Source: Escherichia phage ES12. From it: a stretch of 64,000 nt of DNA. The translations under genes were made by a program, and so were the position numbers. Under the pieces are notes generated by a model. That model saw nothing but the letters and a program-made list of their open reading frames with translations. It was not told the DNA's origin and ran no database searches. The stretch is from the sequence record MN508614.1; one strand, 5' to 3'. Below, one piece after another: positions 10,953 to 11,787 of the stretch (position 1 is the first letter of the stretch; every line of letters begins with the position of its first letter).

Positions 10953-10990
10953 AGGGTAATAGTATCACAACTAAAACCCTATGTAAACAA
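10953..10990 (-). promoter_or_regulatory. PeSL-like early promoter plus stem-loop module
   Basis: Minus strand GTTTAC-18 nt-TACTAT with inverted repeat atagggt/accctat; core aatagtatcac. Confidence 0.55.
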
Positions 10991-11000
10991 CTTTGTGAAA

Positions 11001-11258
11001 TTATTTTAAATCTTCTAATCGTTTCTTCATCTTAGAACCGTTCTTAGCGATTTCGCCTGCATCAGAGCATAATGCTAAAAGCGCTTTAACTTTAGTTTGG
11101 TCTCCTTTAAAAGATGAAGGATCAACAGCAGCAGCAAGTTCTTTAATACGAGAGAAAAGACGCTCAGCTTCAGCTAAAGCCATTCCAAGCTTTACTTCCA
11201 TACCATGAGAAGATTCAGTAATAGTAGTTTTTGTAGCAAACTCTTTGAAAGTTTTCAT
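11001..11258 (-). CDS. Small protein with CTS-like N-terminus MKTFKEFATK (I-T-E site at residues 13-15)
   Basis: 85-aa ORF, AGGAAA RBS, own early promoter. Confidence 0.55.
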   Translation of the reverse strand: MKTFKEFATKTTITESSHGMEVKLGMALAEAERLFSRIKELAAAVDPSSFKGDQTKVKALLALCSDAGEIAKNGSKMKKRLEDLK

Positions 11259-11282
11259 TTTTATTTTCCTAATTAATTTTGA

Positions 11283-11320
11283 TGAGGTAATAGTATCACT
11301 ACCTCATCAGTATGTAAACA
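11283..11320 (-). promoter_or_regulatory. PeSL-like early promoter plus stem-loop module
   Basis: Minus strand GTTTAC-18 nt-TACTAT; inverted repeat gatgaggta/tacctcatc; core aatagtatcac. Confidence 0.55.
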
Positions 11321-11331
11321 ACTTTGTGAAA

Positions 11332-11787
11332 TTATTTTAAATCATCTGCCCAATCGAGTTTAAGAGGCTCTTTATATTCACGATCTAATACGACCGGAAT
11401 TTGTACATCACCGCTAAATGATAAGGGCCCAACATTATAAGACAATGTTATATGCGGTGTGTAATCATCAAAATCATGTGTAGCACCTAGCGCCCGCGCA
11501 TACATGTGTCGACAGCGCAGATATTCAGAATCTAGTACAAGTACAAGAGTAGATCCATCTTGTGTTTTCCATACTTCTAAATGTCCAGAAGAAGCTACTT
11601 CAAAACTTCCGCTTGATGGAACATACGGAACATTTACTCTCGAATAACATATAGTCGAATGAATTTTTTCTCTAGGAACTGGATTAGGAACACGTAAAGA
11701 GCGCTGGAGTTCTTCCAGCGCATCAAGTGTTAATTCTGAAAACTTAGCTGCTACATAAAGACCCGTTGAAAAGTCTTTAAATTCCAT
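11332..11787 (-). CDS. 57B: gp57B-like protein
   Basis: 151-aa ORF in the T4 57B position, immediately downstream of 57A. Confidence 0.8.

Follow-up and report, generated by a model that had tools for sequence, protein, structure and literature searches.

PeSLs (promoter-early stem-loops) were defined by Arbiol 2010 (PMC2839356), where mini-circles produced by recombination between flanking PeSLs were also demonstrated. The PeSLs of RB49/phi1 combine sigma-70 boxes that are almost perfect with G/C-rich stems shown to terminate transcription, and those of PST/T4 follow the consensus TTTACW-N17-TAYWAT (Comeau 2014, PMC4122927). As recounted in Arbiol 2010 (PMC2839356) and Comeau 2014 (PMC4122927), PeSL-like sequences at T-even IP loci had already been seen by Repoila et al. 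in 1994 (EMBO J 13:4181). Arbiol 2010 regards the elements at these loci as analogous, and not homologous, to the PeSLs of RB49/phi1 (PMC2839356).

The ip locus encodes injected counter-defence proteins and adjoins the anti-CBASS gene acb1. The mode of ip gene swapping sets the speed of host-range change in T4-like phages, and swapping matters for the choice or engineering of therapeutic phages. We analysed a stretch of 64,000 nucleotides (the window) whose sequence is 100% identical to that of Escherichia phage ES26 (MN508618), a T4-like Tequatrovirus. The ES26 locus, 57B-ip5-ip6-trna.4, is that of the classical phage T6 in both its genes and their order, and the same repeat is found in T6 (32 bp exact, 330-bp spacing). 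ES26 differs from the known T-even ip loci only at the level of alleles, having an ip5 of the SHBML-50-1 type together with an ip6 side of the ACG-C40 type. The phenomenon, the locus and the T6 gene order are already known, and our analysis confirms this biology and does not extend it. ES26 illustrates it cleanly: a near-identical relative has the exact empty site, and the breakpoint can be placed within 92 bp.

An exact 33-bp direct repeat brackets ip5

All genes and spacers of the locus lie on the minus strand. The conserved left anchor is 57B (acb1, 11332–11787), which encodes an anti-CBASS 2H phosphodiesterase (Pfam PF23474 Acb1, E 2.6e-60) and is present at a nucleotide identity of at least 95% in 502 phage records. 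It is followed by ip5 (11001–11258), which encodes an internal head protein of 85 aa (PHROG 3499 'internal head protein', E 1e-49) and has 98.4% nucleotide identity to RB15 ip5 (Z35082); the same gene is annotated Ip5 in T6. Next is the internal protein gene ip6 (10691–10924; PHROG 8111, E 1.5e-52), annotated in T6 and ACG-C40. As in those phages, its likely start is MKTYQEFIAE at 10924, the mechanical ORF call beginning at an upstream ATG at 10936. The conserved right anchor, trna.4 (10447–10632), encodes a 61-aa predicted membrane protein.

An earlier note on this DNA had described an exact 32-bp direct repeat around ip5, and we found the 32-mer ATGTAAACAACTTTGTGAAATTATTTTAAATC in identical copies at 10981–11012 and 11312–11343. 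The exact repeat extends one base further, to 33 bp (10980–11012 and 11311–11343). No additional copy of the 32-mer occurs elsewhere in the window, even with three mismatches allowed, and no match to it arose in 100 dinucleotide-preserving shuffles, so that the repeat is not due to chance. The content ascribed to the copies (DLK codons, stop codon and GTTTAC −35 element) was also borne out. On the minus strand each copy reads GAT TTA AAA TAA (D, L, K, stop), then the AT-rich stretch TTTCACAAAGTT, then GTTTAC and the three bases ATA, with the upstream copy (11311–11343) taking its codons from 57B/acb1 and the downstream copy (10980–11012) from ip5; the two proteins end in DDLK and EDLK, respectively. 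Within a 71-nt module, whose two copies (10946–11016 and 11277–11347) share 86% identity, conservation is highest in the 33-bp repeat; a third, more diverged copy of this module lies at 10648–10718.

Predicted promoters and hairpins in the spacers of the ip locus

The spacer between 57B and ip5 (11259–11331) contains a −35 element GTTTAC (11314–11319), the box TACTAT (11290–11295) as part of the extended −10 element TGaTACTAT, and a 13-bp hairpin (11280–11309; MFE −20.5 kcal/mol, z −4.5) that encloses the −10 box, followed by the leader TTAATTAGGAAAATAAAA and the ATG. The spacer between ip5 and ip6 (10937–11000) has its −35 element at 10983–10988, its −10 box TACTAT at 10959–10964 and a hairpin at 10951–10982 (MFE −18.1 kcal/mol, z −3.7), with arms ATAGGGT/ACCCTAT around the spacer and the −10 box. 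Both contain a promoter match TTTACA-17-TACTAT with a TG extended −10 element (11318 to 11290 and 10987 to 10959). The spacer between ip6 and trna.4 (10633–10690) holds the third and more diverged module, with a −35 element immediately 3′ of the ip6 stop codon (10685–10690), a −10 box at 10661–10666 and a hairpin at 10650–10681 (z −3.7). We counted six occurrences of GTTTAC-N16-19-TAYWAT in the window, where 0.33 would be expected, and three of the six are in the ip locus. The modules are predicted to act as promoters in vivo.

Twelve phages contributed 31 spacers between 57B and trna.4, and all of them had the same layout: stop codon, AT-rich stretch, GTTTAC, stem arm, GTGATACTAT, stem arm, Shine-Dalgarno sequence and ATG. 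All spacers between these anchors are PeSL-type modules in the three genera examined (Tequatrovirus, Mosigvirus and Gaprivervirus). Across 15 distinct modules from the three genera, 83.7% of cells are paired in the hairpins, as compared with 24–56% when the partners are slid, and compensatory changes occur in six of nine pairs, giving a covariation score that was reached by 0/500 shuffles.

The ip-locus modules share the layout of the PeSL cassettes of RB49/phi1, PST/T4 and nt-1/KVP40, in which a stop codon in an AT-rich region is followed by promoter boxes, a promoter-overlapping stem-loop, a Shine-Dalgarno sequence and a start codon. The stop codon lies inside the AT-rich stretch in all three ES26 modules, in the form GATTTAAAATAATTTCACAAAGTT before the −35 element in both repeat copies and AAAAAATAA abutting GTTTAC in the third module, and the 3′ ends supply a Shine-Dalgarno sequence and start codon (TTAGGAAAATAAAAATG for ip5, TGGAAATCAAAATG for ip6 and GAGGAGAATAAAATG for trna.4). 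Like the PeSL cassettes, the ip modules separate small non-essential ORFs of a hyperplastic region in which close relatives differ by indels with junctions inside the modules, and their promoters fit the PST/T4 consensus. By contrast with the PeSLs of RB49/phi1, they have T4 early-promoter boxes, AT-richer stems and no T-run. We found no homology between the two sets, the ip-locus boxes being GTTTAC and TACTAT and the stems ATAGGGT/ACCCTAT and GATGAGGTA/TACCTCATC. Judged by sequence, the ip-locus modules are PeSL-type in the broader sense of Comeau 2014, and not homologues of the RB49 elements.

A consensus scan of the spacers gave no terminator-like site, and the hairpins lack a T-run; the terminator role of the RB49/phi1 PeSLs may therefore not apply to the ip-locus hairpins, and we do not claim one for them. 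The late promoter TATAAATA is absent from the spacers, the nearest upstream match on the minus strand being at 12385–12392, inside gene 1. Late expression of ip5 and ip6 could come about through read-through.

Whole ip genes are present or absent between conserved anchors

We compared the locus across T4-like relatives, as the earlier note had proposed. Nine configurations occur between near-identical 57B and trna.4 anchors. No ip gene is present in slur02; ip6 alone is found in T-01 and ECO07P5, ip5 alone in PP01, NBEco003 and SHBML-50-1, ipI alone in T4, RB27 and slur08, and ip7 alone in G8. The order ip5-ip6 occurs in ES26, ACG-C40, T6 and teqskov, and ip5-ip7 in T2; the longest arrays are ip5-ip9-ip7-ip8 in RB15 and ipI-ip9-ip7-ip8 in EP01. 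Approximately 254–268 of ~502 Tequatrovirus-level records carry ip5, including T2 and T6.

ECO07P5 corresponds to ES26 minus positions 10980–11310, with no other difference across 10353–11373, and its sequence is exactly the product predicted from recombination between the two ES26 repeats. T-01 and slur02 have empty junctions of the same kind. Among ip genes in general, the positions of junctions vary, and they fall within the modules and the leader-peptide coding region. Thus, ip5 is present in some relatives and absent from others, with a junction exactly at the repeat and conserved flanks. The opposite pattern, with the gene in all relatives and diverged flanks, would have pointed to ancestral sequence; instead, roughly half of the records lack ip5 and the flanks are conserved.

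Mosaic ancestry of the ES26 locus

The nearest relative of the ES26 ip5 allele differs from that of the flanks. ES26 and SHBML-50-1 have no differences over 10948–11490, the tract that includes ip5, and differ by ~3% beyond it. ES26 and ACG-C40 have no differences over 10353–11039, on the ip6 side, and again differ by ~3% beyond. Under a Poisson model, the probability of such a run without differences is ~6e-8 for SHBML-50-1 and ~1e-9 for ACG-C40. The two tracts overlap in a crossover interval of 92 bp (10948–11039), which holds one copy of the repeat and is wider than the repeat. These runs indicate that the recent event in ES26 is an exchange; gain of ip5 and replacement of an older allele explain the data equally well and cannot be told apart.

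Recombination between modules as the probable basis of ip gene exchange

We propose, with a probability of roughly 0.88, that the repeat is the common 5′ half of two PeSL-type modules that flank ip5 in a hyperplastic ip locus, and that recombination there swaps genes. Each module consists of an AT-rich stretch that holds the upstream stop codon, a predicted T4 early promoter (GTTTAC, 17 nt, TGaTACTAT), a hairpin around the −10 box and a leader with a Shine-Dalgarno sequence. Every small ip gene would form its own transcription unit with one module between neighbours. Otherwise unrelated ip genes have no homology apart from the modules and the leader-peptide coding region. Recombination in T4-type phages occurs wherever there is homology. 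Because the homology is confined to the modules and leader region, general recombination would cross over there, and the presence of crossovers in the modules may reflect the location of homology and not a special recombinogenic property. The agent of exchange would be the general recombination machinery of the phage. Homologous recombination between co-infecting or sister genomes would add, delete or replace whole ip genes. Specifically, a crossover between the 33-bp copies of ES26 would remove exactly 331 bp, comprising ip5 and one hybrid module, and ip5 would be gained by the reverse event or by a double crossover with an ip5-bearing donor.

The 5′ ends of ip genes are the second stretch of homology that these genes have in common. 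In ES26, the 5′ end of ip5 (11223–11266), which includes the leader coding sequence and the ribosome-binding region, is 77% identical to the corresponding part of ip6 (10889–10932). The leader MKT[FY][KQ]EF... of Ip5 and Ip6 aligns with those of IpI, Ip7, Ip8 and Ip9, and leader variants are mosaic between alleles.

The ip locus resembles integron cassettes in function only, as an array of small, swappable, promoter-proximal adaptive genes between repeated structured elements. Unlike integrons, it lacks an integrase and attC/attI sites, each of its genes has its own promoter, and exchange would occur by general homologous recombination. As a tentative extension that we regard as possible, if rather doubtful, the locus may be an active integron-like exchange platform in which a 331-bp ip5 mini-circle is shed, packaged and re-integrated into any resident module of a co-infecting phage. 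Mini-circles have been demonstrated for RB49/phi1. If the locus does act as such a platform, the −10 hairpin would be under selection for its part in recombination and also in regulation.

The earlier note had combined a cassette reading with a claim of recency, taking the two identical boundaries as the footprint of a probably recent acquisition. The cassette reading is supported insofar as two promoter/stem-loop modules bracket one small gene whose presence or absence among close relatives has its junction at the repeat; the claim of recency is not supported. A new insertion of ip5 by module recombination into an ECO07P5-like 57B-ip6 ancestor, with the identical boundaries as its fresh footprint, is an unlikely account of the locus. 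ECO07P5 does provide an exact empty site and matches ES26 without difference on the ip6 side. In addition, SHBML-50-1, which carries ip5 only, has 100% identity to ES26 across ip5, both modules and the 3′-terminal 159 bp of 57B, as against ~97–98% in the neighbouring sequence, and ES26 could be obtained by one crossover in the module at 10948–11012 and another in 57B. However, ACG-C40 already has the order ip5-ip6, and its ip6 side is equally identical to that of ES26, through 11039; hence, replacement of an allele fits equally well. Moreover, the order ip5-ip6 is found in 158 Tequatrovirus-level records, ip5 is carried by about half of all records, and an ip5 homologue occupies the same locus in a Gaprivervirus. 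An exact repeat of 30–33 bp also brackets ip5 in T2, T6, RB15, PP01, ACG-C40, SHBML-50-1 and NBEco003; among the ip5 carriers examined, it is lost only in teqskov, by one substitution in one copy. Since the exact repeat is so widespread among carriers, identical boundaries are neither a fresh footprint nor proof of recency, and since the repeat is also a predicted functional promoter segment, selection alone would keep its copies identical.

A second alternative takes that last point further, attributing the identity of the repeat copies to purifying selection on the upstream region of a strong early promoter, with no part in gene gain or loss. A similar segment, TTTCACAAAACTGTTTACA, lies upstream of an unrelated early-promoter match at 6371–6389, and one and the same 19-mer is found after 57B, ip5 and ipI, which are different genes. 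Consistent with strong promoters, nearly all PeSL promoter clones in Arbiol 2010 were mutated in the −35 or −10 element, which the authors read as a sign that the native promoters are too strong for intact cloning (PMC2839356). Selection of this kind is compatible with the use of the repeat as a crossover site, and only the claim that recombination plays no part is in competition with exchange between modules. We consider that claim improbable: indel junctions fall at the repeat with single-base precision, the interval of the mosaic breakpoint contains a copy of it, and promoter function does not require an identity of 33/33 running through four codons.

It is very improbable that the cassette was moved by a dedicated enzyme, either through integron-like site-specific recombination or through a homing endonuclease with co-conversion. 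An HNH-like ORF (8529–9161) lies 1.8 kb from the cassette, and T4 SegB is reported, in work cited by Comeau 2014 (PMC4122927), to drive preferential inheritance of the adjoining tRNA region. However, the HNH ORF is missing from most phages with the same ip polymorphism, and the cassette itself codes only for the 85-aa Ip5. None of the seven ORFs at 9237–11787 (57B down to a 171-aa ORF) gave a recombinase or integrase match, and the same was true of every ORF from 57A to the tRNA genes. The variability of the junctions also fits homologous recombination, and not an enzyme acting at a fixed site. Lastly, misassembly of the ES26 record, or a tandem duplication private to it, has nothing in its favour beyond the general risk that repeats pose to assembly and can be dismissed, given the same architecture with 327–331 bp spacing in the independently sequenced T2, T6, RB15 (1994 Sanger), PP01 and ACG-C40.

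Ip5 and the ends of its gene

The N-terminus of Ip5, MKTFKEFATKTTITE, resembles a capsid-targeting leader, and the capsid-targeting leader of Ip proteins ends in a Glu cleavage motif. The role of the Ip leader peptide has been described previously (PMC3012670, PMC12373910). A Pfam search with Ip5 gave only a sub-threshold DUF match, and a PDB sequence search for a structural homologue gave nothing below E 0.7. The single-sequence AlphaFold2 model of Ip5 is a two-helix hairpin (pLDDT 79, pTM 0.49), a fold too generic for a fold search. In T4, the position after 57B is taken by ipI, which encodes the GmrSD type IV restriction enzyme inhibitor IPI*; the module upstream of ipI is identical, and its product also begins with MKTFKEF. 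Ip5 and Ip1 have no sequence in common beyond the leader. Ip1–3 are injected inhibitors, each of a distinct GmrSD variant (PMC12373910), which makes a similar role plausible for Ip5; PMC12373910 names no target for Ip5. By analogy with Ip1–3, Ip5 may be a packaged and injected counter-defence protein.

The ip5 homologue of Gaprivervirus RZ lies in the same locus, does not adjoin 57B, and ends in EDLK using different codons. This rules out the possibility that the DLK end of ip5 was copied from 57B in the ES26 event. The AT-rich stretch overlaps the last codons of the upstream gene and may constrain C-termini, so that Acb1 and Ip5 both end in DLK in different genera. In a small sample considered for concerted evolution of the two repeat copies, these agree at a variable position within a phage, with ACAC in both copies of PP01 and ACAT in both copies of ES26; NBEco003 is mixed.

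ip5 is bracketed by an exact direct repeat

The 10400–12100 region is 100% identical to ES26 (MN508618, Tequatrovirus), the name used here for the phage of the window; the next best record is at 97.9%. Every gene of this region is on the minus strand: gene 1 (dNMP kinase; 12029–12754), 57A (11787–12029), 57B (11332–11787), which encodes the anti-CBASS phosphodiesterase Acb1 (Pfam PF23474, E = 2.6e-60), the internal (head) protein genes ip5 (11001–11258; 85 aa; PHROG 3499 'internal head protein', E = 1e-49) and ip6 (10691–10924, or to 10936; 77/81 aa; PHROG 8111 'internal virion protein'), and trna.4 (10447–10632), with a tRNA cluster beyond. 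Phage T6 has the identical order, 57B-Ip5-Ip6-trna.4, and ip5 is 98.4% identical to RB15 ip5 in a 1994 record (Z35082).

An earlier note had reported a 32-bp direct repeat around ip5, each copy covering the last codons of a gene, its stop codon and the -35 element of the next promoter. The two copies (10981–11012 and 11312–11343) are exact, no further copy was found in the 64-kb window with up to 3 mismatches permitted, and 0 of 100 dinucleotide-preserving shuffles gave a match. Reading the sequence directly extended the exact repeat by one base, to 33 bp (10980–11012 and 11311–11343). On the minus strand each copy reads GAT TTA AAA TAA (D-L-K-stop), TTTCACAAAGTT, GTTTAC and ATA, confirming the described content, and the genes upstream of the copies end in ...DDLK and ...EDLK. 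The repeat is the best-kept part of a 71-nt module, a promoter/stem-loop spacer between small genes, whose copies at 10946–11016 and 11277–11347 are 86% identical; a third, more diverged copy lies at 10648–10718. The 3' halves of the two modules (stem and leader) are unlike each other, and the 33-bp repeat is the common 5' half: gene end, AT-rich upstream region and -35 box.

The modules share an early promoter pattern and a conserved hairpin

We took all spacers lying between 57B and trna.4 in 12 phages (n = 31) and aligned them. All 31 have a common layout, 5' to 3': the upstream gene's stop codon in an AT-rich stretch, GTTTAC, a stem arm, (T)GTGATACTAT, the second stem arm, a Shine-Dalgarno leader and ATG. 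A promoter scan predicted TTTACA-17-TACTAT with a TG extended -10 at 11318→11290 and 10987→10959, and GTTTAC-N16-19-TAYWAT occurs 6 times in the window versus 0.33 expected, with 3 of the 6 within the ip locus. This pattern agrees with the published PST/T4 consensus for promoter-early stem-loops (PeSLs), TTTACW-N17-TAYWAT (PMC4122927). The predicted hairpins enclose the -10 box, with minimum free energies of -18.1 to -20.5 kcal/mol (z of -3.7 to -4.5 versus shuffled sequences). Stem sequences vary across modules and genera with complementarity kept, as in the arm pairs GATGAGGTA/TACCTCATC, ATAGGGTA/TACCCTAT, ATAGGACTA/TAGTCCTAT and GTGTAGGTG/CACCTACAC. Within a set of 15 distinct modules (Tequatrovirus, Mosigvirus and Gaprivervirus), pairing holds in 83.7% of the cells at stem positions, versus 24–56% with partners slid; compensatory changes are present in 6 of 9 stem pairs, and the covariation score was matched by 0 of 500 shuffles. 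No T-run follows the hairpins, and a scan of the spacers detected no terminator-like site.

We also observed five small leader-bearing genes between 57B and trna.4 at 892–2346 in Gaprivervirus vB_EcoM_RZ. Three of the spacers there (g1>g2, g2>ip5-like and ip5-like>g4) measure only 8–26 nt and have no full promoter/hairpin module, indicating that the module is not present at each ip gene boundary in each genus.

The ES26 modules have all the sequence-level features of the PeSL definition, without sequence homology to the RB49 elements. T-even IP elements have been described as analogues, not homologues, of the RB49/phi1 PeSLs, being built on T4 early promoters with weaker, more AT-rich stems (Arbiol, 2010; PMC2839356); the same point was made when the PeSL concept was extended to the PST/T4 pair (Comeau, 2014; PMC4122927). 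PeSL-like sequences at T-even IP loci go back to Repoila et al., 1994, as cited by Arbiol, 2010 (PMC2839356). The ES26 locus, with the classical gene order of T6, is thus a textbook case of an already known phenomenon, one described for this same locus in 1994, according to that citation, and generalised in 2010 and 2014.

ip5 is present or absent with its junction at the repeat

The anchors 57B and trna.4 are nearly invariant across relatives, and the content between them is variable. We observed no ip gene in slur02, ip6 in T-01 and ECO07P5, ip5 in PP01, NBEco003 and SHBML-50-1, ip5-ip6 in ES26, ACG-C40, T6 and teqskov, ip5-ip7 in T2, ipI in T4, RB27 and slur08, ip7 in G8, ip5-ip9-ip7-ip8 in RB15, ipI-ip9-ip7-ip8 in EP01, and other combinations in Mosigvirus and Gaprivervirus. 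Recombination between the ES26 repeat copies is predicted to delete 10980–11310 (331 bp). ECO07P5 aligns to this predicted product with 0 gaps and 0 differences from 10353 to 11373, across the junction; T-01 has the same junction with 2 substitutions, and slur02 is the corresponding empty site with respect to PP01. These alignments thus establish that ip5 is present in some relatives and absent from others, with the junction at the repeat. The earlier note had proposed this comparison and named, as the outcome that would speak against a mobile cassette, a gene carried by all relatives between diverged flanks; the relatives instead include phages without ip5, with near-invariant anchors.

The repeat is old and the recent event in ES26 is an apparent exchange

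In our phage collection, 57B is found at ≥95% identity in 502 records, and ip5 is covered at ≥80% in 268 records, 254 of them at ≥90% identity and including T2, RB14, RB51 and RB33; ip5 and ip6 adjoin as in ES26 in 158. Around ip5 the repeat is exact over 33 bp in ES26, SHBML-50-1, ACG-C40 and T2, over 32 bp in both PP01 and T6, and over 31 bp in NBEco003; in RB15, whose record stops there, it measures at least 30 bp. Among carriers compared, teqskov alone shows a substitution, in one of its copies. At this locus vB_EcoM_RZ carries an ip5 homologue with the EDLK end, in other codons and not adjoining 57B. Because ip5 is widespread, the repeat is exact in most carriers and the Gaprivervirus homologue ends in EDLK, the evidence says that both are old at this locus, the repeat as well as the DLK ending, and that they are stable features of ip5. 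Since the repeated segment is the predicted promoter region, its identity is uninformative on age. The suggestion that ip5 is a recent acquisition is thus not supported as it was stated, the repeat being kept in T2, T6 and others and the ip5-ip6 pair in many phages. In the record of phage GiZh (KT184311.1, 121189–121756), the depositors placed the annotation 'direct repeat sequence ... possible binding site of StbAB' under the ip5-ip6 region; others evidently saw these repeats and read them differently.

The nearest relatives of ES26 differ along the locus: teqskov for 57B (99.6%), SHBML-50-1 for ip5 (100%) and ACG-C40 for ip6 and trna.4 (100%). ES26 has 0 differences from ACG-C40 over 10353–11039 and 0 from SHBML-50-1 over 10948–11490, with ~3% divergence beyond in each case; the Poisson probabilities of such runs, using flanking rates, are ~1e-9 and ~6e-8, respectively. 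The overlap of the two runs places a crossover within 10948–11039, where a left part resembling ACG-C40 and ECO07P5 meets an ip5 tract resembling SHBML-50-1. This 92-bp interval holds the ip5→ip6 module with the right-hand repeat copy. As read from the pattern of identity, the recent event in ES26 is an apparent exchange that brought the SHBML-50-1-like ip5 tract beside the ACG-C40/ECO07P5-like part. Two histories of this exchange fit equally well: insertion of ip5 into an ECO07P5-like genome with ip6 only, and allele replacement at ip5 in an ACG-C40-like genome.

The observations comprise the make-up of the modules, their conserved hairpin, an indel junction exact to the base and a mosaic whose crossover interval includes a module. 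Such changes may arise when sister genomes, or genomes brought together in a mixed infection, undergo general homologous recombination, with crossovers in short shared stretches that would add, remove or replace entire ip genes. For RB49/phi1, experiments show this mechanism, with recombination between flanking PeSLs that yields mini-circles (PMC2839356). The ip5 cassette contains no recombinase or homing endonuclease, and the sole nuclease-like ORF nearby (HNH-like, 8529–9161) is absent from most phages with the same polymorphism. The view of promoter/stem-loop modules as recombination boundaries bracketing one small gene was structurally correct.

Internal proteins and neighbouring variable stretches

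Both proteins begin with the capsid-targeting leader common to T-even internal proteins, MKTFKEFATKTTITE in Ip5 and MKTYQEFIAE in Ip6 (for its role, PMC3012670, PMC12373910). The leader-peptide regions (11223–11266 and 10889–10932) are 77% identical, the 5' ends of ip genes being homologous, and leader variants are mosaic among alleles (MKTFKEFATKTTITE in ES26 versus MKTYKEFATETIITE in PP01 for Ip5; MKTYQEFIAETAD in ES26 versus MKTFKEFIAESSD in T-01 for Ip6). Ip5 had no match in Pfam or PDB, and modelling from its sequence alone gave a two-helix hairpin of a generic kind. Ip1–3 are inhibitors of GmrSD enzymes, a different one for each protein (PMC12373910), and Ip5 may, by analogy, be a packaged, injected counter-defence protein. 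The late-promoter consensus (TATAAATA) nearest upstream of the ip genes is at 12385–12392 (minus strand), within gene 1; none was found in the ip spacers, so late expression would require read-through of 57A, 57B and the hairpins.

The ORF at 8529–9161 (minus strand; 210 aa) has a weak HNH match (Pfam PF01844, E = 0.005, under the curated cut-off), and its counterpart in phage Pu-Krd-SF2 is annotated 'HNH endonuclease'. It lies directly after tRNA-Leu (8436–8522), where most Tequatroviruses, such as T6 and ECO07P5, have tRNA-Gln; ARAGORN detected no tRNA-Gln in 7000–10000, and only 13 phage records cover ≥80% of 8400–9800. This looks like a free-standing homing-endonuclease insertion, with the tRNA gene displaced or replaced. 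A 171-aa ORF at 9237–9752 (minus strand; PHROG 2290, function unknown; no Pfam match) is without counterpart in ECO07P5, where the alignment jumps at ~9260–9779; the stretch is ~81% identical to Mosigvirus moha, SSE1, vB_Eco_F31 and FP43, and is another indel of the same variable stretch, which lies between trna.2/trna.3 and the tRNA genes. At the trna.3 position (10049–10447, minus strand, and leftward) different phages have alternative sequences (ACG-C40 is 99% identical to ES26; T4, T2, PP01 and SHBML-50-1 align at only 40–69%), indicating that the variable region reaches past the ip genes.

The ORF at 6546–7196 (minus strand) contains an internal MKSYTQFLNEA, a start resembling the capsid-targeting leader, which suggests a gene of the second internal-protein locus (ipII/ipIII-like). 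Early-promoter matches (GTTTAC-N-TAYWAT) at three more sites, 5622–5651, 6011–6040 and 6348–6377, stand ahead of small ORFs just downstream; upstream of one of them lies a segment similar to the repeat, TTTCACAAAACTGTTTACA (unrelated early-promoter match, 6371–6389).
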